From NCBI GenBank assembly GCA_003556225.1, contig PWRN01000063.1, forward strand, positions 4,060 to 68,059: DNA of 64,000 bases, given 5' to 3'. The DNA is from Syntrophomonadaceae bacterium (lineage in GTDB: Bacteria > Bacillota > Dethiobacteria > DTU022 > UBA8154). The notes under the pieces were generated by a model. The model searched no databases, was not told where the DNA came from, and worked only from the letters and a program-made list of their open reading frames with translations. The position numbers and the translations under genes are program-made. Below, piece by piece: positions 5,312 to 63,388 of the stretch (its first letter is position 1; every line of letters starts with the position of its first letter).

Positions 5312-6598
5312 ATGCTGCTGCATATCTCGAACAGGCTTTTCTTCTATGCCGCGGGCTACGTCGGTATCGCCCTGTTTACCCAGGTTGTGGCCACCTGGTC
5401 CATGTATTTTTACGCCCCTCCTGATGGGGTGGGGCGCGTGGCTTACGTCCCCATTTCCTTTTTTGGCCTTTTCCTGGGCATCAGCAGGGTTATCGATGCC
5501 TTCACCGATCCGCTGATCGCGAACTGGAGCGATCATTTTCAGAGCCGGTGGGGCCGGCGCATCCCCTTTATCGCCGTGGGCGGGATCCCCCTGTCCGCCT
5601 GCTTTATCCTGCTCTGGATGCCACCGGTGGAAGGATACTCTTCGCTGAACAGCCTCTACCTGTTCCTGGTTGCGGGAGGGTTTTTCCTCTTCATGACCAT
5701 GGTTACCTGCCCCTTCCTGGCCCTGCTGCCGGAGATTGCCTCTCCCCCGGAAAGGATTACCGCTGCTTCCCTGCTGGGCACCGCCTACGTGTCGGGACTC
5801 CTGCTGGGTACCGTGGGTTCCTCCTTGCTGATCAACCGTTACGGCTTCAGCATCATGGGGGTGGTGCTGGGTCTTTTCTGCCTGCTTTCGTTCTATACAC
5901 CCGTTTTTGCCGTGCGGGAAAAAGATCTGCCCGCCAAGACCCATGTGCCGAGACTCCGCTTCAAAGATTCCCTCTTTGATGTTCTGCGCAACGATGCTTT
6001 CCGTCCTTTTATTGTTGGCCAGGTTTTTTTCTGGTTCGCCTTCAACCTCATGTTGATGGGACTGCCTTATATCATCACCATTCGCATGGGTCTCCCCGAA
6101 GAACGCACCGGCTGGGCCCTGGGCCTGGCCCTGATCATCACCCTGGTTTCTTTTCCCCTGCTCTCCTGGCTGGCCCGGAAGGCGGGCAAAAAAAAGGCCT
6201 TTTTGATGGTGATGGCCCTCTCCTGCGTGGTTTTGGCCGCCCTCAGCACCATCGGCTTCTGGCCCGTGCCGCTGGGAAAAACCACCCAGAGCCTGGTGGT
6301 CATCGCCCTTGCAGGCATCCCCCTTGCCGGCCTCTTTCTGCTCCCCAACGCGCTCATTGCCGATATTACCGATTACGATGCTTGGGGTTCCGGTCGGCGC
6401 CGGGAAGCCATGTTTTATGCCCTCTACGGCATGGTGATGAAGTCGAGCATCGGCCTTTCTTCTTTATTCCTGGGTCAACTGCTTCATCACCTGGGGTATC
6501 ACCATGATGATCCCCTGGGGGTCTACCTGATCGCACCACTGGCCGTCGTGTCGATTTTATTGGGACTGCTCTTTTTCCGGAAATACCCCCTGGAATGA
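5312..6598 (+). CDS. MFS transporter, glycoside-pentoside-hexuronide (GPH):cation symporter family
   Basis: 428 aa, ~12 TM; DAFTDPLIANWSD....RWGRRIPFI matches GPH D..R.GRR motif; GGAAAGGTGGTG SD. Confidence 0.75.
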   Translation: MLLHISNRLFFYAAGYVGIALFTQVVATWSMYFYAPPDGVGRVAYVPISFFGLFLGISRVIDAFTDPLIANWSDHFQSRWGRRIPFIAVGGIPLSACFILLWMPPVEGYSSLNSLYLFLVAGGFFLFMTMVTCPFLALLPEIASPPERITAASLLGTAYVSGLLLGTVGSSLLINRYGFSIMGVVLGLFCLLSFYTPVFAVREKDLPAKTHVPRLRFKDSLFDVLRNDAFRPFIVGQVFFWFAFNLMLMGLPYIITIRMGLPEERTGWALGLALIITLVSFPLLSWLARKAGKKKAFLMVMALSCVVLAALSTIGFWPVPLGKTTQSLVVIALAGIPLAGLFLLPNALIADITDYDAWGSGRRREAMFYALYGMVMKSSIGLSSLFLGQLLHHLGYHHDDPLGVYLIAPLAVVSILLGLLFFRKYPLE

Positions 6599-48994: not shown

Positions 48995-49246
48995 ATGGTG
49001 ACGAAAAGCATTCTCCAGGAGTTGGATCTTGGCAAAACATATACGGGTGAGCAGTTAAAACAGTTTATCGCTTACAACCGGGTCGGTTCCATCATCTTCT
49101 GCAAAGACACCCGGATCTGCAGCGTTGACCCCGAGGCTATTTTTGTCGTCGAGGAAATCCTCGAAGGTTACATCAATAAACGTCGGAATGATTATAAAAA
49201 CCATTACGATGCCAGGCAAAAAATTTACATCGTCTGCGAAAAATGA
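48995..49246 (+). CDS. hypothetical small protein (~83 aa), convergent with and overlapping 3' end of the GH13-GH77 gene
   Basis: ATG 48995 with GAGGTGA SD 5 nt upstream; no recognisable motif. Confidence 0.35.
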   Translation: MVTKSILQELDLGKTYTGEQLKQFIAYNRVGSIIFCKDTRICSVDPEAIFVVEEILEGYINKRRNDYKNHYDARQKIYIVCEK

Positions 49247-52200
49247 TGCCGGCAGTACTGCCGGGTCAGGCCCAGCAACCTCTCTTGCGGAAGCCGATCC
49301 ATCTGTGCCGGTAATAGCCGCCAACCCCAGTTACCCCGGGCTGTGCCCGGGGTATTCATGTGGGCCTCACTTCCCAGCCCCAGCAAATCCTGCATGGGAA
49401 TAATCACCCGCTGCGCATCGCTGCCCATGGCCAGTTCAATATAATACCAGTTGATTTCCTCTTCCGCTGTCCCGGAGGGTCCCGCGCGGCCAGCGGCTTC
49501 AGCGATCTGCTGGTACCAGCCGAGCATGGTATCGTTGTCATGGGTTCCCGTGTAAAGGACCGTGTTTTTTTGGTAGAGGGGCAGGGAAAGCTTTTCTCCC
49601 GGGCTGCCCTCCAGCATAAACTGCATGACCATCATGCCCGGAAATCCTAACCTCACTTTCAAATCCTCTACCTCGGGCGTAATATGGCCCAAGTCTTCGG
49701 CAATCACGTCCAGGGGACCCAGTTCAGCCATGACCTGGCGGAAAAAGGGCTCCCCGGGTCCCTTGACCCACTGCCCGTTGACCGCCGATTCTTCACCCGC
49801 GGCCACTTCCCAAAAGGCTTCGAAGCCGCGAAAATGATCGATACGCATGAGATCCACCAGGCGGTTCAGCAGGGCAAAACGATCCTTCCACCAGCGGTAG
49901 CCATTCGCTTCCATTTCACCCCAGCGGTAGAGGGGGTTCCCCCACAGCTGCCCGTCTTCGCTGAAGTAATCCGGGGGCACGCCGGCGACCCTGGACGGGT
50001 TTCCTTTTTTGTCCAGGGCGAAGAGATCACGCCGGCTCCACACGTCGCTGCTGTCATGAGCCACGAAGATGGGCAGGTCGCCCACGATCCGGATCCCTTT
50101 TTCCCGGGCGTATTCTTTGAGGGCAAACCACTGCTGGAAAAAGATGTACTGCAGGAAGTGGTGGAAGGTCACTTCTTCTTGCAGTTTCTGCCGGTAGCGT
50201 TGCATGGCCGGGGGTTTCCGGAATGCTGCGGCCTTTTCCCACTGGTTCCAGGGTAACCCCTGGAAGTGATCCTTGAGGGCCATGAACAAAGCATAGTCCT
50301 CCAACCAGTGCCAATTTTCTCGGCAGAAGTTGTGGAAATCTTTTTTGTTGATTCCGCCAAGGGCAGTAAACCGGGTAAACGCCCGGCGCCAGAGCCCGGC
50401 TTTGTAGGTTTCAACTCTTGAAAAGTCTACCCTGTCATCCAGGAAAAGCGGCGGGTTTTCCAGGTCCTGCCGGGTCAGGAGTTGATCCCGAACCAGGGCC
50501 TCCGGGTCAATGAGCAGGGGATTGCCGGCAAAGGCCGAAAAACACTGGTAGGGAGAAAAACCCAAACCCGGAGGATTCAAGGGCAGGATCTGCCATAATC
50601 CCTGGCCGCTTGCCTGCAGAAAATCGATAAAGGCCCGGGCTTCACGGCCCAGCCCGCCGATGCCGTAGGCTGAGGGCAGCGAGGTAGGATGGAGCAAGAC
50701 CCCGCTTTCCCGCACCTCCTGGTGGTTTGATCCCCAGCGGTCCTTGAGCAACATGCGCCCTTCCAGGGGGTTGAGCGTCAATTCCAGACAGCCATCGCTT
50801 AGGGCTACTGCCTGGTAATCATTCAGCACATCTACAGCCGATTCCTCAAACCACCGGGACAGGTCCAGGGAAAGGTCTGCACTATTTTCCCAGCTGCGGT
50901 TAAATAAGAGCACTGCCGCGTTATTCTTTTTCACCTGATCAAACAGATCGGAACCGCCTTCGATCACCCGCAGGAACCCGTAGATATCTCCCCCGGCGTA
51001 TAAAATCTGCCAGCTGCCGGTTTGTAAAACGTCATAGTGATTGCGCAGGGCAATGACCGTTTTGAACCATTCCAGCAGCTCCCGGTTTTCCCTGCCCCAG
51101 GGATACGCCCTGCGGTTATCGGGATCTTCTCCCCCTTCCAGGCCGGCTTCGTCTCCGTAGTAGATGCAGGGAACCCCGGGGAAAGAGGCCTGCCACAGGG
51201 AAAACAAGCGCAGGCGCTCCGTGGCGATGCGTTCACTTTCTGGAGCAGCAAGAGTTTCCGGCAGGTTTTTGCCCAGTTCCGTCAGGATCCGGGGCACGTC
51301 ATGGCTGCCCGTCAGGTTCAGGGCGCTGTAAAAATGTTGACGGGGGTAATTTTCGTACAGGCTCATCAGGGACATGTGGGTGGCCCAGGGACTTGCTTCT
51401 TCCAGCAAATAGTTCAACAAAATGCGGCGGAGAGGATAGTTCGTGGTGGAGTCCAGCTCTTCTCCCAGCAGGTATTCTCGCCTTTCGCCATAGCTGACCT
51501 TGTTGGAAGCGTCTTCCCAGACCTCGCCGATGAGGACAGCATCCGGGTCCTGTTCTTTCGTGACGCGACGAAAATTTTTCACAAATTCTCCGGGCAGTTC
51601 GTCCACCACATCCAGCCGCCACCCCCGGGCGCCTTTCTTCTGCCAGTGCCGCAGCACACTGTCAGGGGCGAAAATGATAAAGTCCTGGTACGAGGACTCC
51701 AGTTCATTGACATTGGGCATGGTCTCGATCCCCCACCAGGACTCGTACTTGTGGGGGTAGTCGGTAAAACGATACCACGGAAAATAGGGGGAATCCGGGG
51801 ATTGGTACGCCCCCAGGGATGGATAGTTCCCTTCCCGGTTAAAATAGATGCTGTCGCTGCCCGTATGGCTGAAGACCCCGTCCAGGATCACGTGGAGGCC
51901 CATCTGCCGGGCTTCGGCGCACAGGGTTTCAAAGAGCTCCCCGGTCCCGTACATGGAATCGACGGTGTGGTAATCGGCGGTATCATACTTGTGATTGCTG
52001 GGGGCTTCAAAAATCGGATTTAAATAGATGGCGCGCACGCCCAGTGTTTTGAGATAGGAGAGCTTTTGCCTGAGGCCTTCCAGGTTCCCCCCGAAAAAGT
52101 CCCACCGCACGACTTTACCCGTTGCCATGTCCCGGATATAAACAGGATCATTTTCCCAGTATGCGTGGAGCAGGCTGTTTTTCTTGGGGTGGAGCACCTT

Positions 52201-52680
52201 TTCTCCGAAGCCGTTATAAAAGCGGTCGACGAAAACCTGGTAGACAACGGCCTCCCGGATCCAGTCAGGGGTCGCCAGCCCGGGGGCGTGCACCGTCACC
52301 TGGAACCCCGGAGGCACGTGGTCGGTCAGGCGCCCCGGCCCGCCCTTTTGATTCGGGTTGTTGCCGTAATAGTAAACCCCATCGGCGCGCTCAATCCGAA
52401 AGTAGTACCACAACAGGCCGGGGTTTTCCGGGGCCACCAGTTCCACCCGGAACAGGCCCTCTCGTGGGGTAGAGGGCGCATCGTCGGGCAACATGGGAAT
52501 CTGCTCGCTGATCTCCTGCCCCGCATGTTCAAAGGTCTTGTACAGGAAAACGGATTGAACTGCCGGATCCCGGGAGTTCAATTCCGTTTCGATCTTGAGA
52601 TGGATTTTTGTGCCGCAGGGAACCGCACCGAATGGATCACGGTAAAACCGGTCATGGGAGTTGTGGTAAGCCCACATCAT
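49225..52680 (-). CDS. fused GH13 alpha-amylase-family hydrolase (neopullulanase/cyclomaltodextrinase-like) + GH77 4-alpha-glucanotransferase (MalQ/amylomaltase-like), 1151 aa
   Basis: N-half: GH13 regions LDGVFSHTG, GWRLDVVDEL, IGEVWED, LTGSHDVPR; C-half: GVLLHPTSLPSAYGIGGLG...SPYQCFSAFAGNPLLID typical of GH77. Confidence 0.8.
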   Translation of the reverse strand: MMWAYHNSHDRFYRDPFGAVPCGTKIHLKIETELNSRDPAVQSVFLYKTFEHAGQEISEQIPMLPDDAPSTPREGLFRVELVAPENPGLLWYYFRIERADGVYYYGNNPNQKGGPGRLTDHVPPGFQVTVHAPGLATPDWIREAVVYQVFVDRFYNGFGEKVLHPKKNSLLHAYWENDPVYIRDMATGKVVRWDFFGGNLEGLRQKLSYLKTLGVRAIYLNPIFEAPSNHKYDTADYHTVDSMYGTGELFETLCAEARQMGLHVILDGVFSHTGSDSIYFNREGNYPSLGAYQSPDSPYFPWYRFTDYPHKYESWWGIETMPNVNELESSYQDFIIFAPDSVLRHWQKKGARGWRLDVVDELPGEFVKNFRRVTKEQDPDAVLIGEVWEDASNKVSYGERREYLLGEELDSTTNYPLRRILLNYLLEEASPWATHMSLMSLYENYPRQHFYSALNLTGSHDVPRILTELGKNLPETLAAPESERIATERLRLFSLWQASFPGVPCIYYGDEAGLEGGEDPDNRRAYPWGRENRELLEWFKTVIALRNHYDVLQTGSWQILYAGGDIYGFLRVIEGGSDLFDQVKKNNAAVLLFNRSWENSADLSLDLSRWFEESAVDVLNDYQAVALSDGCLELTLNPLEGRMLLKDRWGSNHQEVRESGVLLHPTSLPSAYGIGGLGREARAFIDFLQASGQGLWQILPLNPPGLGFSPYQCFSAFAGNPLLIDPEALVRDQLLTRQDLENPPLFLDDRVDFSRVETYKAGLWRRAFTRFTALGGINKKDFHNFCRENWHWLEDYALFMALKDHFQGLPWNQWEKAAAFRKPPAMQRYRQKLQEEVTFHHFLQYIFFQQWFALKEYAREKGIRIVGDLPIFVAHDSSDVWSRRDLFALDKKGNPSRVAGVPPDYFSEDGQLWGNPLYRWGEMEANGYRWWKDRFALLNRLVDLMRIDHFRGFEAFWEVAAGEESAVNGQWVKGPGEPFFRQVMAELGPLDVIAEDLGHITPEVEDLKVRLGFPGMMVMQFMLEGSPGEKLSLPLYQKNTVLYTGTHDNDTMLGWYQQIAEAAGRAGPSGTAEEEINWYYIELAMGSDAQRVIIPMQDLLGLGSEAHMNTPGTARGNWGWRLLPAQMDRLPQERLLGLTRQYCRHHFSQTM

Positions 52681-52745
52681 CTCATCGCTCCTGGAAGTGT
52701 TCGTGCACTGCTTTTTGGAGATGCAAATCCTGCCTCCCTGCCCTG

Positions 52746-55175
52746 CTAGCTGATAACCAGGGGCTCAATCTCCCAGATCCCCGAGGCATACTGGGAGATT
52801 GTCCGGTCGCTGGAAAATTTCCCGGAGTGGGCAATGTTCACGGTCGTCATCTCGCACCATCGGCTGCGGTCGCTGTAGGCCTGGCTCGCTTCTTCCTGGG
52901 CCTCCACGTAAGAGGCGAAATCCTTCAAAATAAAATACTCGTCATTATGTGCCAGGAGACAATCATGGATCGTCTTAAAATCTCCCCGGGAATTTCCAGG
53001 GAATCCCGCAGTCAACTGGTCCATCAACACTTTTACCCGGGGGTCTTTTTCATAGATATCATAAGAGCGATAGCCCCCGTGCAGGTAATAGCTCATCACC
53101 TCGCTGGAAGAAAGGCCAAAAACGAACATGTTTTCACTCTCGACTTCGTCAAAAATCTCAATATTGGCCCCGTCCATGGTGCCGATGGTCACGGCGCCGT
53201 TCATCATAAATTTCATATTTCCGGTGCCTGAGGCTTCCTTGCTGGCGGTGGATATCTGTTCGCTGAGATCCGCTGCGGGAACAATTAATTCGGCCAGGGA
53301 AACCCGGTAGTTTTCCAGGAAGACCACTTTGATCAATTGGTTTACCTGCGGGTCGGAATTGACCTGTTCCGCCAGGGAAGTAATCAACTTGATCGTGCGT
53401 TTGGCCTGGTGATAGCCGGGAGCTGCTTTTCCGCTGAAAATAAAGGTCCGGGGGGGAAAATTCATGTCCGGATTTTCCTTGAGGCGGTTATAGAGATGCA
53501 TGATATGCAGGACATTTAAAACCTGGCGTTTATAGGCGTGAATACGCTTGACCTGGATATCAAAAATGGATTCAACATCCACAGTGATCCCGTTGTGTTC
53601 CTTGATGTAGCGGGCCAATTTTTCCTTGTTGGCCTGTTTGACCCGGAAGAGCTTTTCCTGGAAGGAGACATCGCGGGAGTAGCGCTCCAGCGCAATCAGG
53701 TCCTCAGGGTGCCGGGTCCATCCTTGCCCGATTACATCGGTGAGCAGTTCTGCCAGCAGGGGGTTGGCCTTGAGCAGCCACCTGCGGTGGGTGATCCCGT
53801 TGGTCTTGTTATTAAATTTTTGAGGGAAATACTGGTAGAACAGGTTCATCTCGCGCTTTTTGAGAATCTTGGTGTGGATCTTGGCCACGCCGTTCACGCT
53901 GTGACTGCCCACGATCGCCAAGTGGGACATCTTCACCCGCCCGTCAGCGACAATAGCCATTTTGTGGATGCGGTCCCAATCACCGGGATATTGCTTCCAA
54001 AGTTCGCGGCAAAACTGTTCGTTCAGCTCCACCACGATCATATGAATCCGCGGCAAGAGTTCTTTAAAAATATCCTCCGGCCAGGTTTCCAGCGCTTCCG
54101 CCAGGGTCGTGTGGTTGGTATAAGAGATGGCCTGGGTGGTAATCTTAAACGCTTTTTCCCAGCTAAACCCTTCCACGTCCATGAGGATGCGCATCAGTTC
54201 TGGTACAGCCAGGGCCGGGTGGGTATCGTTGATATGAAAAGCAATTTTATTGTGCAAGTCATGCAGGGAGCTTTTGCGCCGCTTGTAAGCCCGAATAATA
54301 CTCTGCAGCCCGGCGGAAACCAGGAAGTACTCCTGTTTGAGGCGGAGCACCCTGCCTTCAAAATTGGTGTCGTCGGGATAAAGAAACTGGGAAATGGATT
54401 CGATAGAATATTTATATTCCAGGGCTTTCTGCTGGCTCTCGATACCCGAGGTTAAAAACGCATCACAGGTCGGATCCGGCTCTGCGCTCCAGAGGCGGAG
54501 CGTATTAACCGTTTTATTCAGATAGCCGGTAACAGGGATGTCATACGGAACCGCCAGGACCGGCTCGTAGTTTTCGTGGTGAAAGACCAACTTCTTGCCG
54601 GTGTCTTCCACGCGAACGGTCCCTCCAAACCTCACCTCCACGGCCTTATCGAACTTGCGGAATTCCCAGACATTGCCTTCGCGCAGCCAGTATTCCGGCA
54701 GTTCCACCTGGTGTCCTTCCACGATTTTTTGCTCGAAGAGGCCGTACTTGTAGCGGATCCCGCAGCCATGTCCAGGCAAACTGAGAGAAGCCAGGGAATC
54801 CAGGAAGCAAGCGGCCAATCGACCCAGACCCCCGTTCCCCAATCCGGCATCGGGCTCTTCGGAGATCAACGCTTCCAGGTCCACCCCCAGCTCAGCAAGC
54901 CCTTCTTTACAGATATCCCGGATGCCCAGGTTGATCAGGTTGTTGTCCAGCAGGCGCCCCAGCAGAAACTCCATGGAAAAATAGTAAGCCTGTTTTTCCC
55001 CTGATTCCCGGTATCGATTATTGGTGGCAATCCAGTTGCGGGTAAGCTGGTCCCGGATCATGTTGCCCAGGGTGATGTATTCGTCTGCAGCGGTGGATTC
55101 GCTGACGCTTTTCCCGTGAATGGTTTCCAATCTTTCAATAAAGGCCGCTTTAAAATGTTCTTTGTCCGAAAACAT
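52746..55175 (-). CDS. glgP: alpha-glucan (glycogen/maltodextrin) phosphorylase
   Basis: 809 aa; PLP site EASGTGNMKFMMNGA. Confidence 0.9.
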   Translation of the reverse strand: MFSDKEHFKAAFIERLETIHGKSVSESTAADEYITLGNMIRDQLTRNWIATNNRYRESGEKQAYYFSMEFLLGRLLDNNLINLGIRDICKEGLAELGVDLEALISEEPDAGLGNGGLGRLAACFLDSLASLSLPGHGCGIRYKYGLFEQKIVEGHQVELPEYWLREGNVWEFRKFDKAVEVRFGGTVRVEDTGKKLVFHHENYEPVLAVPYDIPVTGYLNKTVNTLRLWSAEPDPTCDAFLTSGIESQQKALEYKYSIESISQFLYPDDTNFEGRVLRLKQEYFLVSAGLQSIIRAYKRRKSSLHDLHNKIAFHINDTHPALAVPELMRILMDVEGFSWEKAFKITTQAISYTNHTTLAEALETWPEDIFKELLPRIHMIVVELNEQFCRELWKQYPGDWDRIHKMAIVADGRVKMSHLAIVGSHSVNGVAKIHTKILKKREMNLFYQYFPQKFNNKTNGITHRRWLLKANPLLAELLTDVIGQGWTRHPEDLIALERYSRDVSFQEKLFRVKQANKEKLARYIKEHNGITVDVESIFDIQVKRIHAYKRQVLNVLHIMHLYNRLKENPDMNFPPRTFIFSGKAAPGYHQAKRTIKLITSLAEQVNSDPQVNQLIKVVFLENYRVSLAELIVPAADLSEQISTASKEASGTGNMKFMMNGAVTIGTMDGANIEIFDEVESENMFVFGLSSSEVMSYYLHGGYRSYDIYEKDPRVKVLMDQLTAGFPGNSRGDFKTIHDCLLAHNDEYFILKDFASYVEAQEEASQAYSDRSRWCEMTTVNIAHSGKFSSDRTISQYASGIWEIEPLVIS

Positions 55176-55189
55176 CGGCTTTCCCCTTC

Positions 55190-56620
55190 CTATGCTTCAA
55201 GTAACGCCCGGTAAACCTGGATGTACTCGCGCGCAGAGCGCTGCCAGCTGAAATCTTTCTGCCGGGCATTTTTCACAATCACCGGCCAAATCGCGGCGTC
55301 GCGGTAGAATGCCAGGGCTCGTTTAACGGTGTGGAGCATATCGTGAGCGTTGAAATTTTTAAAGCTAAACCCGTTTCCTGTGCCGGTAAACTCGTTGTAG
55401 GGCTGGACGGAGTCTTTTAGACCCCCCGTTTCTCTTACCAGGGGCACGGCGCCGTAGCGCATGGCGATCATCTGGCTGATCCCGCAGGGCTCAAAGCGGG
55501 AAGGCATGAAAAAGATATCCGCGCCGGCATAAATTTTCCGCGCCAGGGAATCATCAAAGTCCAGGGTAACGGAGAGCCGCTCCGGGTAGCGCTGAGCGAA
55601 TTCTTGCAGGCGGTCGGCATAGGAAGGCTCCCCGGTCCCCAGGAAAACCAGCTGCAGGTTGAGGGCCAGCAACTCTTCCAGGACGTGCATCACCAGGTCC
55701 AATCCTTTTTGCTCCACCAGCCGACCGATGAAAGCAAAAAGGGGAATGGTTTTATCCTGGGGCAAACCCAAAAGCTCCTGCAGCTTCAGCTTGTTTTCGC
55801 TTTTCTTATCCAGTTCATCTTTGTAGTTCACAAAAAGATGGGGGTCTGTTTGAGGGTTATAGACCTCGTAATCAATGCCGTTGATCATCCCTTTCAGCCG
55901 GTCACTTCTTTTCTGCAGCAAACCTTCCAGGCGTTTGCCGTAATAGGGTGTCTTGATTTCCTCTGCGTAGGTTGGGCTCACCGTAGTTAAAAAATCAGAA
56001 AAAGCCAGCCCGCCTTTCAGATAGCTGCCCTGCCCGTAAAATTCCAGGCCATCCAGGGTAAAGTGCTCTGGCCCCAGTTCCAGCAGTTCTTCCAGAAGGT
56101 CCCGTGGGAAAATCCCCTGGTAATGCAAATTGTGGACCGTGAAAACCGTGCGGATACCTCGAAAAAACCGGTCGGCGCCGTACTGGGTTTTTAAAAAGAC
56201 GCTGACCAGGCCTGCCTGCCAGTCATGAGCGTGGATGACCTGGGGTTGAAAGTGCAGGCAGGGTAGGCTTTCCAGGGCAGCCCGGGAAAAAAAGGCGAAC
56301 CGCTCGGCATCATCGTTGTATCCATAGAGCTTATCCCTCTTGAAATAGTATTCGTTATCCACGAAATAAAACGGAATGCCCGCATGTTCAGCCTCCAGGA
56401 TGCCACAATACTGAAAGCGCCAGCCCAGGGAGACGGTCAGGCGTTTACGCAGTTTCATTTTCGAGCGGAGTTGGAAGGGAATGGTTCCATATTTGGGCAT
56501 CACAACCCGGGCATCTACCCCTTGTTTTCTGAGCTCAAGGGGCAGCGAGCCGATCACGTCGGCCAACCCACCGGTTTTCGCAAAAGGGACCCCTTCAGAA
56601 GCAACCAACAGGACGTTCAT
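55190..56620 (-). CDS. glgA: glycogen synthase (ADP-glucose type)
   Basis: start MNVLLVASEGVPFAKTGGLADV (KTGGL motif) with GAGGAGG SD; track ORF extends 44 codons further upstream without SD. Confidence 0.9.
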   Translation of the reverse strand: MNVLLVASEGVPFAKTGGLADVIGSLPLELRKQGVDARVVMPKYGTIPFQLRSKMKLRKRLTVSLGWRFQYCGILEAEHAGIPFYFVDNEYYFKRDKLYGYNDDAERFAFFSRAALESLPCLHFQPQVIHAHDWQAGLVSVFLKTQYGADRFFRGIRTVFTVHNLHYQGIFPRDLLEELLELGPEHFTLDGLEFYGQGSYLKGGLAFSDFLTTVSPTYAEEIKTPYYGKRLEGLLQKRSDRLKGMINGIDYEVYNPQTDPHLFVNYKDELDKKSENKLKLQELLGLPQDKTIPLFAFIGRLVEQKGLDLVMHVLEELLALNLQLVFLGTGEPSYADRLQEFAQRYPERLSVTLDFDDSLARKIYAGADIFFMPSRFEPCGISQMIAMRYGAVPLVRETGGLKDSVQPYNEFTGTGNGFSFKNFNAHDMLHTVKRALAFYRDAAIWPVIVKNARQKDFSWQRSAREYIQVYRALLEA

Positions 56621-56639
56621 CACAAATCCTCCTCGCCCG

Positions 56640-57755
56640 TTAAACGGTTTTTCTTTTTTCAAGCACCACAGGCTTTCTTTCCTCCCCACGAAAAGTCTTG
56701 TGGGCGGAGACGTAAGCTTCCTTGTCCAGGATCGCGTACTCCACCCGGGCATTTTCCCCGATTACGCTCCGCTGCAATACAATACTGTCTTTGACATGGG
56801 CTCCCTTATGCACGCGCACACCTCGAAAGAGAACGCTGTTTTCCACGCGCCCCTCGATGATGCAGCCGTTGGCCAGGATGGAATTCTGTACAACGGCGTT
56901 TTCCGTGTACCGGGTCGGCGGTTCATCTTTCACCTTGGTATAAATTAACCCCGGCTGGAAAAACAGTTCACCCCAGATCGAGGGCTGTAAGAGATCCATA
57001 TTGCGCCGGTAAAAAAGACCGATGGAATGGATCATGGAAAGGAAACCCTCTGCCGGAAATGCGCACACCTTCAGGTTCTGTAAATTCCCGATGATGCCGT
57101 CTCCCAGCAGGTGGAATTTGCCTGCTTCGGTGCACTGCTGGATCAAATCCAGCAGCAGGGCTTTCCTCATAACATAAATGCAGAGGGCGGCTTTTTCACC
57201 CCGGGCGGGGTTGGAAGCCGTGATGATTTCTTGGACGCGTTCGCCCTCCCCGGTAATGATCTTTCCGCAGCCAGCAAAATCCGGCTCAGGGTGTTCTACT
57301 TCTTTATAGAGAATAGTGATATCCGCATCAGATTCCCGATGAAAGGACACAGCCGGGGCAAAGTCCAGGTTACACACCAGGTTGCTCCCGGAAATCACCA
57401 CGTATTCCTGCCGGCAGCGATGAAAATAATCCAGGTGCTGGTTAAAGCTCTGCAGGGCACCTTGAAATTCGGAAGAGTGATAATGGGTCTGGGGTGGCAG
57501 GATGAATAAACCGTCTTGCTTGCGGTTTAAATCCCACGACTTCCCTGTTTCCAGGTGATCCATGAGAGAACGGTACTTTCGGACCGTGAAAACAGAAACA
57601 TTAAAAATGCCTGTGTTAACCATGCTGGAAAGAATGAAATCAATCAGGCGGTAGCGGCCGCCAAAGGGAACGGAAGCCACGCAGCGGTCTTTGGTTAAGG
57701 GCTGAAGTGCCTCGTCATCGTCATTCACGTAAATTACGCCCATCACGTCTTTCAT
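56640..57755 (-). CDS. glgD: glucose-1-phosphate adenylyltransferase GlgD subunit
   Basis: 371 aa; [17 protein letters not shown] nucleotidyltransferase fold plus left-handed beta-helix C-terminus; lacks some GlgC catalytic residues as GlgD does. Confidence 0.8.
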
Positions 57756-58948
57756 TTCTTTTCCCCCCTGAGGCCCATCATTTCACCGTTTAACGTGCTC
57801 TCCACGACAGAATTATCGGGGAAGATGGAGTTTTCCCGCACCACGATCAGTTCCTTGCCCGGGCTGGACGTATAACAACCGTTTCCGATGATCACGTTTT
57901 CACCAATGATCGCCCGCTCCAGCAGCACGTCGGTTCCGATGGTCGTCCCTGACATGATGATGGAATCCCGCAAAACACTGCCCTTTCCCACCTGCACCCC
58001 GGGGAAGAGAATGGAATGTTCCACCTGGCCAAAGACCATGCATCCCTCGTTGATCAAAGATCGTTTAACCCGGGCAGCGGGGTCAATATAATGGGGAGGC
58101 TGGTTGGGGTTGACCGTATAAATGGGCCAGGTTAGATCATTCAGATCCAAATCGGGTTGGTCCTGCAGCAGGTCCATGTTGGCCTCCCAAAAGCTCTCCA
58201 GGGTGCCCACGTCCTTCCAGTACCCCCGGAAGAGGTAGGCGAACATGCGGCAGTCGGCCTGGAGCATCTGGGGAATGACATTTTTTCCAAAGTCATTACT
58301 GGAAGCGGGATTGGCCTGGTCCACGCGCAGGTGGTCTTGCAAGATTTCCCGGTCAAAAATATAGATCCCCATGGAAGCCAGGTTATTCCGTGGTTTTTCA
58401 GGTTTCTCTTCAAACTCCACGATGCGACCGTCCTGCGCCGTGTTCATAATACCAAAGCGGCTGGCTTCCGCCCAGGGCACCTCGATGACGGCTATGGTCA
58501 CATCCGCCTGCTTCTCCTGGTGGTATTTCAACATGCGAGAGTAATCCATTTTATAAATATGGTCCCCGGAAATGACCAGGACGTAGCGAGGATCATAACG
58601 TTCAATGAAATATAAATTTTGAAAAATGGCATCGGCCGTTCCCTTGTACCATTCCCCGCCTTTCTGATCAACAAAAGGAGACAAAACGGTAACGCCCCCG
58701 TCTTTCCGATCCAGGTCCCAGGGAATCCCGATCCCGATGTGGGAGTTTAAGATCAGGGGTTGGTACTGGGTCAACACTCCCACGGTGAGGATGCCCGAGT
58801 TTGTACAGTTGCTTAACGTGAAGTCGATCACACGGTATTTACCACCAAAAGGGACAGCCGGCTTGGCTAACTCCCGGGTTAACATACCCAGTCTTCGGCC
58901 CTCACCCCCGGCCAGGAGCATGGCCACGCAGTCTCTTGCCCTGATCAC
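57752..58948 (-). CDS. glgC: glucose-1-phosphate adenylyltransferase
   Basis: [40 protein letters not shown]; GTG 58948 start with GGAGGG SD; 4-nt overlap with glgD. Confidence 0.9.
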
Positions 58949-58977
58949 GATGATCCCTCCTCGCTCACTTCTTCCGG

Positions 58978-60876
58978 TTACTCCCGGCTTAAGACGATGA
59001 CCGCCAGGGGAGGAACGACGAGCTGCAAACTCCAATCTTGATTATGCCAGCGGACTTGCTCCGCTGCCAGGACTTCTGGATTCCTCTGCCCCGAACCACC
59101 GAACTTTTCCGCGTCACTGTTGAAAATTTCCCGGTATTTCCCCGGGCCGGGAACCCCGACACGGTAGTCCTGGTGCACGGCCGGGGTAAAGTTGCAGAGC
59201 ACCACCCGGCAGTCCCTTTCCTGGCGGCCCTTGCGCAAGAAAGTGATGATGCTCTGGCTGTAGTCGTGGGGATCGATCCACTGGAATCCGGCAGCATGGT
59301 GATCCAGTTCCCAAAAAGGTTTTTCCTCCCGGTAAAATGCATGCAGCTCCCGGGCGAAGCACTGCAGCCGCCCATGCAGCTCATATTCCAGCAGGTTCCA
59401 ATCCAGTTGGCTTTCGTAGTCCCACTCGGCAAGCTGGCCTAACTCCCCCCCCATGAAAACAAGTTTTTTCCCGGGATGGGTCATCATGTAGGCGAACAGC
59501 AGGCGCAGGTTGGCAAATTTTTGCCAGTAATCCCCCGGCATCTTATCCAGCAAGGATTTTTTGCAGTGCACAACCTCATCGTGGGAGAGGGGGAGGACAA
59601 AGTTCTCTGAAAAGGCATACCAAAAAGAAAACGTTAACAGGTTATGGTGCCATTTCCGGTGCACCGGATCGATCTCCATGTATTGGAGCATATCGTTCAT
59701 CCAACCCATGTTCCATTTAAAATTGAATCCCAGGCCTCCCAGGTAGGTCGGAGCGGTCACCTGCGGCCACTGGGTAGACTCTTCGGCGATCATGAGAGCA
59801 TCCGGGTAATGGCGGAAAACCTGTTCATTCAGCTTTTTGATAAACGATACCGCCTCCAGGTTTTCCCGACCGCCGAAGCGATTGGGTGTCCATTGACCCG
59901 CTTCCCGTCCGAAGTCCAGGTAAAGCATGCTGGCGACAGCATCAACCCGCAGACCATCGATGTGGTAAACATCCATCCAAAAAAGCGCGTTGGAAATCAG
60001 GAAGCTCTGCACTTCAGGTTTGCCCAGGTCGAAGGTTTGTGTGTCCCACTGGGCACTTTCAGCCCTTTGACCGTCGGCGGGTTCAAATAGTGGTGACCCG
60101 TCGAAATACCTTAACCCATGAGCATCTTTACAGAAATGCCCCGGCACCCAGTCCATGATCACGCCAAGGCCTTCGCGGTGGCAGTGGTCTACAAAATACA
60201 TGAAATCTTCGGGTTTTCCGTAACGGCTGGTGACCGCATAGTAACCCGTTGCCTGGTATCCCCAGGAGCCGTCATAAGGGTGTTCCGCCAGGGGCAGCAG
60301 TTCCAGGTGGGTGTATCCCATGTCAACAGCGTAGTCGACCAGTTCATGGGCTAACTCCCGGTAAGTCAAAAAGTCCCCGGAATGCTTTCTTCTCCAGGAA
60401 CCCAGGTGTACTTCGTAAATCAGCATCGGCTGGTCATAGGGACTGGAAGACGCTCGTTTTGCCATCCAGGCCTGGTCTCCCCACTGGTATGCTTTCAGGG
60501 AGGCAATGCGCGATGCTGAAGCGGGCCTCACTTCTGCTTCAAAGGCAAAAGGATCTGCTTTTTGTAAGATATCTCCGGCGGCTGTAACAATCTCATATTT
60601 ATAGGCATGTCCCAGCTGTGCCGCGGGAACAAAAAGAGACCAGATACCCGTTTTTTTTTCCTTCTCCATGAGATGTCCCCCGCCCTGCCAGCCGTTAAAA
60701 TCGCCGACTACCCTTACTTCACGAGCAGCGGGCGCCCACACCGAAAAACGCACCCCGGCCAAATCATCCTCCACGCGGAGATGGGCTCCGAGAACCTTGT
60801 AGCTCTGGAACAAAGTGCCTTCATGAAATAAATACAAATTGTAATCGTCCGGGGCAGCAGACTCCATGATGAACAA
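58978..60876 (-). CDS. glgB: 1,4-alpha-glucan branching enzyme
   Basis: 632 aa; CBM48 N-domain, GH13 catalytic regions [23 protein letters not shown]. Confidence 0.9.
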
Positions 60877-61088
60877 TCCCTATGTCAAAGTTTTTTATCA
60901 CAATTATGGTAAAAAAAGACGGTTCTCCGCCGCGCAAAGATAACACAGAACAGTGTTACCTGCTCTATTTTAAATATTCTGGATAGAGACATCTAATCCT
61001 GCAGCGCGAAAAAATAATCAATGTCCGGATGGTGACCGGCATGGTGACCTGGTCGGCAGCACTGAGGGATTGGGTGGGTACCTAGTTA

Positions 61089-61135
61089 TATAAAAGCCCG
61101 GGCCATAACCCTGCCTGGGAAATCACCCCCAGGCA
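61089..61135 (-). terminator. possible terminator of the ADH-AOR-MoaD operon (TGCCTGGG...CCCAGGCA hairpin, GCCCGGGC palindrome, TTTTAT)
   Basis: seen on minus strand ~60 nt after MoaD-like stop; T-tract short. Confidence 0.35.
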
Positions 61136-61192
61136 AAATTACGGGCTGAAAGAACCCCGGAGAGGCGGCCAATTCCAGGGCGAATCTCTGCA

Positions 61193-61435
61193 CTAACCCC
61201 CGGATACCGGGGGCAAAACGGCCACCTGGTCTCCATCCTTCAAGAGCAGGTCCTTGCCGGCAATTCTGTTGTTTACGACCAGCGTGCATTCTTCGCCGGA
61301 AGGAATTCCCAGGGCAGCAAGTAAATCATTTGTCGTGTGGTTTTCTTGCAGGGATAACGGGCCCTGCCCGTTATCCATAGCGGGCGTTGCGTACTTCCGC
61401 AAGTTCAAGTACAGTTTTACCTGGACAGTTTTCAT
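61193..61435 (-). CDS. MoaD/ThiS-family ubiquitin-like sulfur-carrier protein (C-terminal Gly-Gly)
   Basis: 80 aa ending ...DGDQVAVLPPVSGG; beta-grasp-like composition; 99 nt downstream of AOR. Confidence 0.65.
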   Translation of the reverse strand: MKTVQVKLYLNLRKYATPAMDNGQGPLSLQENHTTNDLLAALGIPSGEECTLVVNNRIAGKDLLLKDGDQVAVLPPVSGG

Positions 61436-61534: not shown

Positions 61535-63388
61535 TTACCGGCTGGGGAGACCCAATTGCTCCAGTCGTTCTGCCGTGGGGATGCCTTCCGGGGACCAGCC
61601 CCGCAGCCGGTAGTACTCCCAGAGCATTTTACCGAGGTGAGGCAGGCTACCTCCCGCGGCCCCCTCTACCCGATCGTGAGCGAAGAGGCGGGGCGGAAGC
61701 ATATCATCCTTTCTGCTGATCCCCAACCCGGTGTTGATCAACCTTTTCAGATTAAAGATGCGCTCACCCGCCGTCAACAATTCTTGGGCGTCCATCGTCC
61801 AGCCGGTGCAAGCCTTGACCCAATCGCTCACCTCCGCCGGGGTAACGTGGCCCCGGATCAAAAACTTACATAGCCCCAGGGCGTTAAAGGTACCCATGTA
61901 ATCCTGCATGGTCTTGGCCAACAACGGCTTCCCCTGATACCCGTGGGGTTCGTATTCAGGTTCCAATCCCATTAGTTCCGGGGGAAATGCCCGGTTTTCA
62001 CTGAAGTACGTGAGCCCTTCCAGGTGACAGGCGCCGCGATTTCCGGTCGCGTAAACCAGGGCCATACTGGTAAAAGCCCGGGGATCATGGAAAGCGTATT
62101 CCAGCCCCTTGGTCTCCACGGCGAATTCCGCTGCCGGAGGACCAAAGTGGGCAACCGCCCGGCGAACACCCCGGGAGAGTATTTCTCCGATTCCTTCCCG
62201 GTTTCCGATCTGTTCGACAAGTGATAAAATGGCCTCGCCGTTACCCCAGTTCAGCTCAAGGCCTGCTGCATCCTCTGCCTTGAGCAGCCCATGTTCATAG
62301 AGTTCCATGGCCAATGCAATCACCGAGGCCGTTGACATGGTGTCCAGCCCCAACCGGTTGCAGAGATCATTGGCTGCAACTATGGTATGGAGATCGTCAT
62401 TGAGGAGGCACGCACCAAAACCGGCAGCCGTCTCGTATTCGGGTCCGTGGGCTTCCGTTCCGGCATGAGGCCCTTTTGTGACCTGCACCTCTTTTCCACA
62501 GCGGATGGGACAGCGGTAGCAGGCGTAGTGGCCCACGCCGGCGCTTTCCATGATGGCCTGCCCGGATGTCCGGGCCGCCCCTTCCGTCCAGGAACCCCCT
62601 GTCCAGTTGCGGATGGGAAGGTCGCCCAATTTTTCCACCACCGGCACTCCACCAGCCGTGCCGTAATCGGTTAATCCCCTGGTCTTCTCGCGAATGCGGG
62701 GCACGGCCTCCCGGCGCGCCCGGTCAAGGGCGTCCGGGTCGTAAGGTTTAGGTGTTTTCTTCCCTTTAGATACCGCAATGGCTTTTAATCTCTTGGAGCC
62801 CATCACGGCGCCCATGCCTCCACGACCGGCAGCCCGGGCATCATGGCCGTCAATGATAATTCCTGCAATGAGAACCTGTTTTTCACCGGCAGGGCCAATG
62901 GCTGCAGCTCTTAGATTTTCGTCCTCCACCTCTTCCCGAATGGCCTCCTGTGTGGCATAGACATCCTTTCCCCAGAGATGGCCGGCCTCCCGAAGCTCCA
63001 CTTTGTCTTCACGGAGATAAAGGTAGACCGGCTCGGCGGAACACCCGGTGATAATCATGCCATCATATCCACAGCTTCGTAATGCCGAGGGCCAGCGCCC
63101 TCCCACGGTTGACTCCGACCAGATGCCCGTGGCCGGAGAACGGCCGCAGAAAGAAGCTTTACAAGCAGTGGGAACATTAACCCCGGTGAGCAGTCCGGTC
63201 ATAACAAACAGGGGGGCTTCGGGATCCAGGGGGCTGAGCTGCATTTTCCCGGTGTCGTAAAACCATTTTGCAGCCACGCCGCTCCCGCCTAAAAATGCCC
63301 GGTAGTCTGCTTCGGGAATGGTAATTTCCCGGGCCTTACCGGCAGTAAGATCGATATCGAGCAATTTCCCCCGCAAGGAAAACGTCAT
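61535..63388 (-). CDS. tungsten-containing aldehyde:ferredoxin oxidoreductase (AOR family)
   Basis: 617 aa; AOR N-domain (LLDIDLTAGK...FLGGSGVAAKWF), 4Fe-4S Cys ligands and pterin-binding regions. Confidence 0.85.
   Translation of the reverse strand: MTFSLRGKLLDIDLTAGKAREITIPEADYRAFLGGSGVAAKWFYDTGKMQLSPLDPEAPLFVMTGLLTGVNVPTACKASFCGRSPATGIWSESTVGGRWPSALRSCGYDGMIITGCSAEPVYLYLREDKVELREAGHLWGKDVYATQEAIREEVEDENLRAAAIGPAGEKQVLIAGIIIDGHDARAAGRGGMGAVMGSKRLKAIAVSKGKKTPKPYDPDALDRARREAVPRIREKTRGLTDYGTAGGVPVVEKLGDLPIRNWTGGSWTEGAARTSGQAIMESAGVGHYACYRCPIRCGKEVQVTKGPHAGTEAHGPEYETAAGFGACLLNDDLHTIVAANDLCNRLGLDTMSTASVIALAMELYEHGLLKAEDAAGLELNWGNGEAILSLVEQIGNREGIGEILSRGVRRAVAHFGPPAAEFAVETKGLEYAFHDPRAFTSMALVYATGNRGACHLEGLTYFSENRAFPPELMGLEPEYEPHGYQGKPLLAKTMQDYMGTFNALGLCKFLIRGHVTPAEVSDWVKACTGWTMDAQELLTAGERIFNLKRLINTGLGISRKDDMLPPRLFAHDRVEGAAGGSLPHLGKMLWEYYRLRGWSPEGIPTAERLEQLGLPSR

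Follow-up and report, generated by a model that had tools for sequence, protein, structure and literature searches.

Organization of the glg locus

The window, that is, the whole 64-kb stretch of DNA analysed here, carries on its minus strand the genes glgB-glgC-glgD-glgA-glgP, followed by a 1151-aa fusion ORF:

60868..61192, minus strand: 5' intergenic region upstream of glgB, presumed promoter/leader
58978..60867, minus strand: glgB (NCBIfam NF003811, 962.8 bits, cut-off 741)
57752..58948, minus strand: glgC, glucose-1-phosphate adenylyltransferase catalytic subunit, 398 aa (NF003670, 606.3 bits, cut-off 470)
56640..57755, minus strand: glgD, regulatory subunit of ADP-glucose pyrophosphorylase, 371 aa (TIGR02092 glgD, 413.5 bits, cut-off 236.6)
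55190..56620, minus strand: glgA, glycogen synthase, 476 aa (NF001898, 677.7 bits, cut-off 603)
52746..55175, minus strand: glgP, glycogen phosphorylase, 809 aa (TIGR02093, 1119.9 bits; Pfam Phosphorylase, 1044.7 bits)
49225..52680, minus strand: fusion gene, 1151 aa plus stop (NCBIfam NF011083, 1405.1 bits against a cut-off of 1322, residues 2–1144)

The glgB gene starts with the ATG at 60867, with a TTG also present at 60876; its product (629 aa in the JGI annotation) contains the Pfam domains CBM_48, Alpha-amylase and Alpha-amylase_C. The GTG start of glgC at 58948 was chosen by the GAGGAGG ribosome-binding site 5' of it and by the model alignment, and the JGI annotation likewise gives 398 aa. 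The glgA start was set to the ATG at 56620, residue 45 of the ORF, where the NF001898 alignment begins. The end of glgC and the beginning of glgD share the sequence ATGA (a 4-nt overlap) and the remaining spacers measure 29, 19, 14 and 65 nt, which bears out the single operon proposed on these grounds in the first-pass annotation. In addition, no hairpin with a T-run was found in the 65-nt spacer between glgP and the fusion gene. We infer that the glg genes and the fusion are co-transcribed as one operon. Approximately 325 nt separate the stop of a ThiS-like ORF (61193) from the glgB start; no Rfam match was found in 60868..61192 and no convincing sigma-70 consensus 5' of glgB, and a promoter is presumed to lie in this interval.

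A tblastn search of the 64-kb window with both halves of the fusion and GlgB revealed no further GH13 or GH77 gene, in agreement with the earlier statement that neither a separate GlgX nor a free-standing MalQ is encoded in the window. Of the remaining ORFs in the window, the ten largest are housekeeping genes, and no glycoside hydrolase was found in the 10 kb past the window on the AFOR side.

An intact fusion of GH13 and GH77 modules

The fusion ORF runs without interruption from 52680 to 49225, and its product was divided as follows:

52276..52680, minus strand: residues 1–135, N-terminal all-beta domain (AF2 model)
51091..52275, minus strand: residues 136–530, GH13 catalytic barrel with domain B (Pfam PF00128, residues 148–528, 177 bits)
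Residues 267–272, minus strand: GH13 region I, DGVFSH, with H272
51610–51612, minus strand: codon of the nucleophile D357 in GH13 region II, GWRLDVVDE (alignment)
51523–51525, minus strand: codon of E386 in GH13 region III, GEVWED (alignment)
51298–51300, minus strand: codon of D461 in GH13 region IV, GSHDVPR (alignment)
GH13 region V: MPNVN
50746..51090, minus strand: residues 531–645, GH13 C-terminal beta-sandwich domain (AF2 model)
50710..50745, minus strand: residues 646–657, short inter-module linker (DRWGSNHQEVRE), in poorly conserved alignment columns
49228..50709, minus strand: residues 658–1151, GH77 4-alpha-glucanotransferase (amylomaltase) module (PF02446)
49837–49839, minus strand: codon of GH77 D948, invariant
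49696–49698, minus strand: codon of GH77 E995, invariant
49537–49539, minus strand: codon of GH77 D1048, invariant

No N-terminal hydrophobic signal sequence was found, and the protein is therefore presumed to be cytoplasmic. In the AF2 model, residues 1–135 fold into roughly 8 beta strands, and most pLDDT values there lie at 84–94. Searched alone, they gave no Pfam or PDB sequence match and no CBM48; Foldseek alignments of the protein to TVAI, TVAII, neopullulanase and MalZ span ~680 columns and thus include this domain. The beta strands at 556–645 have a pLDDT of about 90, and residues 531–645 show weak Malt_amylase_C similarity in the fusion and its homologues. The Pfam domain Glyco_hydro_77 covers residues 663–1126 (575.6 bits, profile positions 1–463 of 465). 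In a 24-sequence alignment of homologues 50–68% identical to the fusion, D357, E386, D461, H272, R355 and H460 of GH13 and D948, E995 and D1048 of GH77 are invariant, and the positions of GH13 regions I–V are invariant or nearly so. The Pfam domains and these residues confirm an intact protein with two complete modules, as first described, and the loss of GH13 catalytic residues that had been named as a possible refutation did not occur, D357, E386 and D461 all being retained.

The chance that a sequencing or assembly error joined two neighbouring genes is negligible. The two modules are separate, slightly overlapping genes in Desulforamulus aeronauticus (L043), where the break falls at the linker position 646–657. 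However, nine sequences of 1151 aa, taken from JGI, ENA, NCBI and Logan assemblies, fall into the 90%-identity cluster of the fusion, and on a 461-kb ENA contig, which bears an identical aldehyde oxidoreductase, glgP is again followed by a gene for a 1151-residue GH13+GH77 protein; together these copies refute a frameshift or assembly artefact. Moreover, full-length fused homologues make up more than 120 clusters, and the fused form was found in 74 of the 80 genome loci.

The GH13 half resembles neopullulanases and MalZ

The GH13 half scored ~220–320 bits with neopullulanase, maltogenic amylase and MalZ, and resembles this type rather than an isoamylase-type debrancher. Its closest relatives were ThMA, TVAI, TVAII, neopullulanase and MalZ both by sequence (1e-60 to 1e-67) and in Foldseek (TMt 0.65–0.68), consistent with the neopullulanase/cyclomaltodextrinase-like character assigned to it at first. 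The neopullulanase-type region II WRLDVxDE is kept, with E361 aligned to ThMA E332 and W388 to ThMA W359. After NF011083, the best curated models were MalZ (320 bits) and cyclomaltodextrinase (293 bits), both far under their cut-offs (568 and 540), and the GH13 half was rejected as an orthologue of either. Neither CBM48 nor GlgX signatures were found in it; the label GlgX is thus not supported by its neopullulanase/MalZ-like sequence. Homology therefore does not predict α-1,6 debranching of polymeric limit dextrin.

The neopullulanase subfamily (ThMA, TVAII, neopullulanase and cyclomaltodextrinase, with TVAI and MalZ in GH13_21) provides the closest solved structures, N- and C-domains included, and shares with the GH13 half the catalytic triad, region II WRLDVxxE with a Glu at ThMA E332, and an intracellular location, which is presumed for the fusion. 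Identity is just ~25–28%, however, and the fusion differs in having Ser instead of the usual Asn in region I (DGVFSH), MPNVN instead of MPKLN in region V, no CBM34 Pfam match in its N-domain, and a tie to glg operons, usually with a fused GH77. Neopullulanase-type enzymes can cut both α-1,4 and α-1,6 bonds and usually prefer small substrates. The GH77 half matched Thermus amylomaltases at 1e-139 to 1e-140, with 46% identity and a TM-score of 0.90.

A catalogued family at the end of glg operons

Judged by sequence, the fusion is an ordinary member of a known, already catalogued family, NCBIfam NF011083 (PRK14510.1-2, 'bifunctional glycogen debranching protein GlgX/4-alpha-glucanotransferase'), with members in, for example, Sporomusa, Pelosinus, Propionispora, Natranaerobius, Selenomonas and Collinsella. 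It shares with them the GH13+GH77 architecture, a length of ~1120–1200 aa and the position at the glg operon end, although identity to the aligned homologues is just 50–68% and the fusion sequence gives no support to the GlgX implied by the family name. In a one-genome-per-species collection, relatives occurred at 597 places, in Negativicutes, Clostridia, Coriobacteriia such as Collinsella, and one Flexilinea. The family is widespread, and the glycogen operons of hundreds of anaerobes finish with such a gene. The remark that such fusions are not the textbook arrangement is correct as regards textbooks; among genomes, however, the fusion is common, and it passes the cut-off of a catalogued family. 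No biochemical paper on any NF011083 member was found in the literature, and the chemistry of the family has apparently never been measured.

Sufficient upstream sequence was present at 67 loci, and at 66 of these a same-strand glg operon ended in the fusion or in its GH13 module, a position conserved across phyla. No GlgX- or pullulanase-like gene was found within ±10 kb at these loci. The remaining glg genes varied in order, and in most surveyed operons the gene lies directly 3' of glgA. The GH13 clade stands alone at the operon end, with no adjacent GH77, at five loci (L065, L067, L069, L080 and L081), is split from an adjoining GH77 gene in D. aeronauticus, and is fused to GlgA in some Oscillospiraceae (P0251; a 54-member cluster). 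These arrangements indicate that the clade is tied specifically to glycogen genes. Moreover, 96 of the 150 nearest representatives are of stand-alone length (560–730 aa).

The view that the fusion stands in place of glgX is not well supported. In E. coli, the operon does not end in glgX, which has glgB and glgC as its neighbours, and the standard core operon of Firmicutes is glgBCDAP and lacks glgX, as described for Lactobacillus (PMC4282360, PMC4243779).

Proposed role and alternatives

The fusion is a presumably cytoplasmic enzyme with two active sites, encoded last in the glgB-C-D-A-P operon, and its most likely role is that of a catabolic partner of GlgP which trims or debranches the limit dextrins, a reading to which we give about even weight. 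Chains shorter than about five glucoses are not usable by GlgP. GlgP would cut the outer glycogen chains back to short stubs; the GH13 module would then hydrolyse the limit dextrins with these stubs as well as small oligosaccharides, some of them perhaps branched, and the tethered GH77 would disproportionate the released G2–G4 into glucose and chains long enough for GlgP. In effect, a single chain would carry out what GlgX and MalQ do in E. coli, with a GH13 module of another lineage. The GH13 half may cleave α-1,6 bonds; the substrate range and channelling between the two sites are likewise what we infer. Against this reading, Shim et al. are said to have found in 2009 that a separate pullulanase does the debranching in B. 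subtilis. Two precedents come from L. acidophilus: the GH13 'amy' of glgBCDAP-amy is regarded as the debrancher (PMC4282360, PMC4243779), and a GH13_20 maltogenic amylase is paired with a disproportionating transferase (bioRxiv 10.1101/2020.03.17.996314). On the other hand, the delta-amy strain still makes glycogen, and no degradation phenotype appears in the portions of the reports available (PMC4282360, PMC4243779).

A role equivalent to MalZ plus MalQ, confined to maltodextrin salvage, would match the sequence data equally well: GH13 would cut only α-1,4 bonds of short linear maltodextrins or cyclodextrins, GH77 would disproportionate the products, and an unlinked GlgX/pullulanase-type enzyme would debranch. 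We regard it as rather unlikely, if the most serious competitor. MalZ and cyclomaltodextrinase are the best curated models after NF011083, MalZ structures are among the closest, and the GH13_20 amylase and transferase of L. acidophilus act as a pair on linear malto-oligosaccharides (bioRxiv 10.1101/2020.03.17.996314). The visible genome, 64 kb plus 10 kb, is also a small part of the whole, leaving room for an unlinked debrancher. On the other hand, the model scores are well under the cut-offs, so this is no orthologue; the clade goes with glg operons instead of mal/mdx transport loci (66 of 67), none of the 67 loci has a linked debrancher, and some Oscillospiraceae fuse the module to GlgA.

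Indirect debranching as in the eukaryotic glycogen debranching enzyme (GDE), in which GH77 would move the maltotriosyl of a four-glucose stub and GH13 would remove the α-1,6 glucose, is a two-step mechanism that we consider improbable. Two intact active sites on one chain with a very short linker and a gene adjoining glgP in a glg operon suit it; neopullulanase-family enzymes can hydrolyse α-1,6 bonds in small branched sugars. Archaeal TreX has both activities (PMC11046441). Against it, no GH133 or GDE-type domain was detected by Pfam, and the five loci with GH13 at the operon end without adjacent GH77, together with the stand-alone lengths, indicate that the hydrolase does not strictly need the transferase. 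Furthermore, type-I amylomaltases are not known to act on stubs that adjoin a branch point. The suggested analogy to eukaryotic debranching therefore stands for the two active sites on one chain, but not for the domains, the GH133 glucosidase and GDE-type transferase being absent.

Far less probable still is editing during synthesis, in which chains would be trimmed or redistributed as glycogen is built, like isoamylase and D-enzyme in starch. The gene is presumably co-transcribed with biosynthetic genes and directly follows glgA in most surveyed operons, the GlgA–GH13 fusion forms a 54-member cluster, and E. coli MalQ contributes to glycogen formation from maltose (PMC10395257). However, genes for synthesis and for breakdown generally occur together in bacterial glg operons, this one includes glgP, and the data contain no specific pointer to synthesis.

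Comparison with known systems

The fusion and E. coli GlgX plus MalQ probably share a net job, handling GlgP leftovers and recycling short maltodextrins, and the fusion shares GH77 chemistry with MalQ. In contrast, GlgX (GH13_11) has a CBM48 and an isoamylase-type barrel, neither of which is present in the GH13 half, and MalQ is of the long N-terminally extended type, whereas the GH77 half is of the short Thermus/plant DPE1 type (in the curated-model search, NF008274 scored only 92.6 bits). The malQ gene of E. coli sits in the mal regulon.

The eukaryotic enzyme (AGL/Gdb1) likewise combines two alpha-glucan active sites on one polypeptide with a phosphorylase partner. GDE consists of a GH13_25-type transferase and a GH133 (alpha/alpha)6 glucosidase, whereas the fusion combines a GH77 transferase with a GH13 hydrolase, and neither GH133 nor hDGE domains were detected in it by Pfam; any likeness would be convergent.

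In L. acidophilus glgBCDAP-amy-pgm, the GH13 'amy' (LBA0686) lies directly 3' of glgP and is assumed to be the debrancher (PMC4282360, PMC4243779). This arrangement matches the GH13-only variants L065, L067 and L069, a likeness by gene position; unlike the fusion, LBA0686 has no GH77 module. Finally, Neisseria MalQ-GlgB and TreS-Mak illustrate that neighbouring alpha-glucan enzymes have repeatedly been fused in bacteria (PMC11046441), in those cases with other partners and at other pathway steps than in the fusion described here.

Organization of the glg operon

Genes were assigned from the ORF listing and family searches, and start sites were set from ribosome-binding sites, model-alignment starts and JGI gene calls.

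Genes of the glg operon, in order of transcription
60867..58978, minus strand, glgB
58948..57752, minus strand, glgC
57755..56640, minus strand, glgD
56620..55190, minus strand, glgA
55175..52746, minus strand, glgP
52680..49225, minus strand, fusion ORF, 1151 aa

The glgC and glgD genes overlap in the sequence ATGA, and the remaining spacers measure 29, 19, 14 and 65 nt. The 65-nt spacer between glgP and the fusion contains a ribosome-binding site and no hairpin plus T-run, indicating that the glg genes and the fusion are likely co-transcribed. Terminator-like matches found in the search of the operon did not exceed the shuffled expectation (23 vs. 18.3 ± 5.0), and Rfam detected no regulatory RNA in the operon. 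With its genes on the same strand, a GlgC/GlgD paralogue pair and tight spacing, the operon conforms to the Firmicute-type glgBCDAP arrangement, which the relevant passages of PMC4243779 define as the core operon. The first-pass annotation had pointed to the missing glgX, with the fusion in its place; since glgBCDAP without glgX is the normal core operon in Firmicutes, its absence here is no anomaly.

About 325 nt of intergenic DNA lie 5' of glgB, and beyond them a ThiS-like ORF is followed by an aldehyde:ferredoxin oxidoreductase (AFOR) gene. The former (61193-61435, minus strand) encodes an 80-aa ThiS/MoaD-like (Ub-Mut7C) protein with a Gly-Gly end and sits directly 3' of the AFOR gene (61535-63388, minus strand). 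On the other side, an 83-aa ORF (48995-49246, plus strand) converges on the fusion gene and shares its final 22 nt; JGI calls this ORF as a gene, and Pfam gave no match to it. No second alpha-glucan enzyme was found in the window by tblastn or by Pfam searches of the ten largest other ORFs. The sole other carbohydrate-related gene noticed in the window belongs to the MFS_2 sugar-transporter family (5312-6598, plus strand). The remaining window genes have housekeeping functions (dnaG-rpoD, pyruvate phosphate dikinase, glyS, hrcA-grpE-dnaK, lepA and nifS/nifU).

The fusion is a single gene of a catalogued family

The fusion ORF is unbroken, and assemblies from JGI, ENA, NCBI and Logan contribute nine sequences, each of 1151 aa, to its 90%-identity cluster. 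In addition, a 461,685-bp ENA contig (ERZ27301262, k141_2378054) carries an identical AFOR and the same operon, which again ends in a 1151-residue GH13+GH77 gene. The recurrence of the same length across separate assemblies and on this contig, together with hundreds of fused homologues, rules out the frameshift or assembly artefact that could have undone the first-pass annotation, and its claim of one continuous gene is upheld.

The protein scored 1405.1 bits against NF011083, [quoted passage not shown], exceeding the equivalog cut-off of 1322. The match runs end to end (residues 2-1144 aligned to positions 4-1184 of the 1186-position model), and the fusion has the architecture of this model, GH13 followed by GH77 in one ORF. 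Full-length fused homologues (1118-1206 aa) with 50% identity or more make up at least 120 clusters among the protein-search matches, and NCBI already applies an NF011083-type name to many of them, in Sporomusa, Pelosinus, Propionispora, Natranaerobius, Dendrosporobacter and various MAGs. Moreover, when a collection holding a single genome for each species was scanned with two of the family's GH13 motifs, tblastn confirmed relatives at 597 or more sites. The best 80 of these at least 597 loci belong to Negativicutes, Desulfitobacteriaceae, Peptococcaceae, Syntrophomonadaceae, Oscillospiraceae, Coriobacteriia (many Collinsella, Atopobium) and one Flexilinea. The top-ranking genome relative, with 56% identity, comes from a MAG of Syntrophomonadaceae. 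The fusion has a catalogue entry and a name, occurs widely, and is matched by near-identical sequences of 1151 aa in public assemblies. Full-text literature searches found no paper characterising a GH13-GH77 fusion, and the searched passages of a recent, comprehensive review on the alpha-glucan enzymes of prokaryotes (PMC11046441) do not mention it. The fusion is thus an ordinary member of a known, biochemically uncharacterised family.

Both modules retain their catalytic residues

Catalytic positions were checked against the translation and against alignments to Thermus maltogenic amylase (ThMA) and Thermus amylomaltase. The GH77 half is a complete amylomaltase module: PF02446 covers residues 663-1126 with 575.6 bits and profile positions 1-463 of 465, and the scores against NF011080 (663.1 bits, cut-off 477) and TIGR00217 malQ (360.1 bits, cut-off 205.65) are both above threshold. 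It is an amylomaltase of the short Thermus/plant-DPE1 type (E ~1e-140, 46% identity; TM-score 0.90 to Thermus amylomaltase). In an alignment of the fusion with 23 homologues (50-68% identity), the nucleophile D948 (RIDHFRGF), the acid/base E995 (AEDLG) and D1048 (THDND) are invariant.

In the GH13 half, PF00128 (Alpha-amylase) spans residues 148-528, and the conserved regions I-IV are present and align to those of ThMA. D357, E386, D461, H272, R355 and H460 are invariant in the same alignment; the first three are the GH13 catalytic residues, whose retention had been proposed from the sequence and is borne out here. Region I reads DGVFSH, with a Ser (S271, codon 51868-51870) where GH13 enzymes normally have Asn, and this Ser is invariant in 24 homologues. 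Region II, GWRLDVVDE, is of the neopullulanase type, and its Glu aligns to E332 of ThMA. Region V reads MPNVN (51715-51729; consensus LPNVN, with P322 and N323 invariant) and not MPKLN, the region V signature of the neopullulanase subfamily, GH13_20/21 (PMC9781549).

The nearest enzymes by sequence, ThMA, neopullulanase, TVAII and cyclomaltodextrinase on the one hand and TVAI and MalZ on the other, are roughly equidistant (1e-60 to 1e-67). Foldseek gave TM-scores of ~0.65-0.68 over ~680 columns, N- and C-domains included, to the group of ThMA, TVAI, TVAII, neopullulanase and MalZ. The full-length AF2 model (pLDDT 80.7, pTM 0.79) predicts an all-beta N-domain ahead of the barrel, the position of CBM34 in GH13_20 enzymes, and a C-terminal beta domain. 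Searched alone, the N-domain had no Pfam match and only chance-level PDB sequence matches, and the structure search found no solved chain spanning both halves. The fusion has no N-terminal signal sequence, and a cytoplasmic location is therefore presumed.

The GH13 half is not a GlgX

The NCBI name implies identity with GlgX, an isoamylase-type debranching enzyme of GH13_11, which was rejected on three grounds. CBM48 (PF02922) gave no match to the N-terminal 150 or 650 residues even at E<=10; GlgB of the same operon matches it at 5e-21. The GlgX models TIGR02100 and NF002983 are absent among the 25 NCBIfam matches listed, all of at least 27 bits. Furthermore, no GlgX, TreX or isoamylase chain occurs among the best 60 PDB sequence matches or the best 50 Foldseek matches, and no type-I pullulanase is found among the closest structures. 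NF011082 (PRK14510.1-1, 1410 positions) matched only the GH77 part and scored 64.7 bits, where its cut-off is 2511. The GH13 half is no orthologue of MalZ or of the cyclomaltodextrinase AglB either, because its scores are about half of the cut-offs (317.6-320 bits against 568 for the MalZ model NF008051).

Judged by sequence, the name "GlgX", carried by this family in hundreds of species, is unjustified. Since the family's GH13 half is a neopullulanase/MalZ-type module lacking CBM48, pathway reconstructions in which the NF011083 annotation is taken to mean "GlgX present" may be wrong.

The GH13 module is bound to the end of glg operons

All ORFs of the best 80 of the at least 597 loci were compared with the Glg proteins encoded in the window. 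In 66 of the 67 loci with upstream sequence, a glg operon on the same strand closes with the fusion or its GH13 module. A Peptococcaceae MAG locus (L017, WRII01000012.1) is the sole one of the 80 with 10 kb of upstream sequence where no glg gene precedes the fusion. The gene order B-P-C-D-A-fusion occurs in 34 of these best 80 loci and C-D-P-B-A-fusion in nine; the order of the window, B-C-D-A-P-fusion, is shared by Sporomusa sp. KB1, there after an extra glgC-like ORF, and a truncated Syntrophomonadaceae contig retains A-P-fusion. Within 10 kb on either side of these 80 loci, no second CBM48/GH13 gene was found, and the single extra GH13 gene, at locus L023, is oligo-1,6-glucosidase-like.

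The two modules also occur apart. In Desulforamulus aeronauticus DSM 10349 (L043:9968-13433), GH13 and GH77 are separate, slightly overlapping genes ending a glgB-C-D-A operon, and the GH77 gene begins MIFNRKSGILLHPTSLP, exactly at the linker position of the fusion; downstream lies a glgP-like gene of only remote similarity (63 bits). In five of the best 80 loci (L065, L067, L069, L080 and L081), the operon closes with a GH13 module by itself, and GH77 is absent downstream. At L065 and L067, the next gene resembles a DNA methyltransferase, and the ~0.25-1.2 kb separating glgD from glgP yielded no GlgA.

Among the nearest 150 representatives of the GH13 half, taken from 50%-identity clusters, 34 are at least 1000 aa long and 96 have stand-alone length (560-730 aa). 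With the N-terminal half of NF011083, stand-alone members reach 560-825 bits vs. ~260-320 with MalZ/cyclomaltodextrinase, and on these sequence scores the GH13 half belongs to a GH13 clade of its own that is bound to glycogen operons. The stand-alone form is called simply "glycoside hydrolase family 13 protein" by NCBI, whereas JGI uses [quoted passage not shown]. The clade is also fused to GlgA: P0251, with its 54-member Oscillospiraceae MAG cluster, is a 1108-aa protein with glycogen synthase at residues 23-493 and the same GH13 clade at ~554-1068, which NCBI names only "glycogen/starch synthase". Longer architectures carry the clade internally or C-terminally (P0266, 1796 aa; P0274, 1499 aa; P0151, 1326 aa; P0265; P0270; P0258).

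The strict operon-end position and the repeated fusion to neighbours, with GH77 downstream and GlgA upstream, make the glg-bound GH13 clade a clear and well-defined candidate to supply the debranching or trimming step that is missing in many anaerobes. For the window itself the fusion means little, being a regular member of an already catalogued family at the end of an ordinary glycogen operon of the Firmicute type.

Proposed role

Enzymes of the neopullulanase-type lineage can hydrolyse both alpha-1,4 and alpha-1,6 linkages of small glucans, and cyclodextrins and pullulan are among the substrates of the subfamily. An operon closing with a hydrolase of this lineage, joined to a transferase that disproportionates, would suit a finishing role for phosphorylase limit dextrin and malto-oligosaccharides. 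Short chains would be trimmed or set free by the GH13 module, and the GH77 module would convert G2-G4 into glucose and GlgP-competent chains. According to the passages of PMC11046441 on the phosphorylase, GlgP stops at branch points and leaves very short chains unused. We give about an even chance to the fusion being such a finishing enzyme for phosphorylase limit dextrin and malto-oligosaccharides.

The main rival is a salvage pathway resembling MalZ plus MalQ, in which the GH13 half would have no alpha-1,6 role and the debrancher would be encoded elsewhere. The genomic view, which spans the 64-kb window and about 10 kb beyond it, leaves room for such a gene, and this explanation is possible, if rather unlikely. 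The GDE-like indirect mechanism proposed in the first-pass annotation is compatible with two intact sites joined by a short linker but is weakened by the many glg operons in which the GH13 module has no adjacent GH77; we consider it improbable. The GlgA-GH13 fusions would agree with an editing role during glycogen synthesis, which seems very unlikely for the fusion.

Beyond the finishing role of this one enzyme, the glg-bound GH13 clade, usually fused to GH77, might be the main, as yet unrecognised, glycogen debranching system of much of Bacillota and Coriobacteriia, including the abundant gut genera Collinsella, Selenomonas and Megasphaera, which would then have no GlgX- or pullulanase-type debrancher. 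Such a system would couple transfer and then hydrolysis, convergent with the eukaryotic debranching enzyme, and the "GlgX" label would be wrong in both lineage and mechanism. We regard this broader proposal as doubtful.

Comparison with known debranching systems

Lactobacillus acidophilus offers two precedents for the proposed role. A GH13 gene, "amy", follows glgP and is assumed to encode the debrancher in the passages of PMC4282360 and PMC4243779 that treat it, and a disproportionating transferase has been shown to work together with a maltogenic amylase of GH13_20 in this species (bioRxiv 10.1101/2020.03.17.996314).

The first-pass annotation had likened the fusion to the eukaryotic two-activity debranching system. 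The fusion and both catalytic triads were confirmed by Pfam and by the alignment; the eukaryotic likeness did not hold beyond architecture. PF00128 and PF02446 are the sole Pfam domains of the fusion, with neither GH133 nor hDGE-type transferase domains, and homology to eukaryotic GDE was rejected on this basis; one homologue gave a sub-threshold hDGE_amylase match (E 0.0073, 15.9 bits against a cut-off of 27). The resemblance between the fusion and the eukaryotic debranching enzyme (GDE/AGL) is therefore architectural only.
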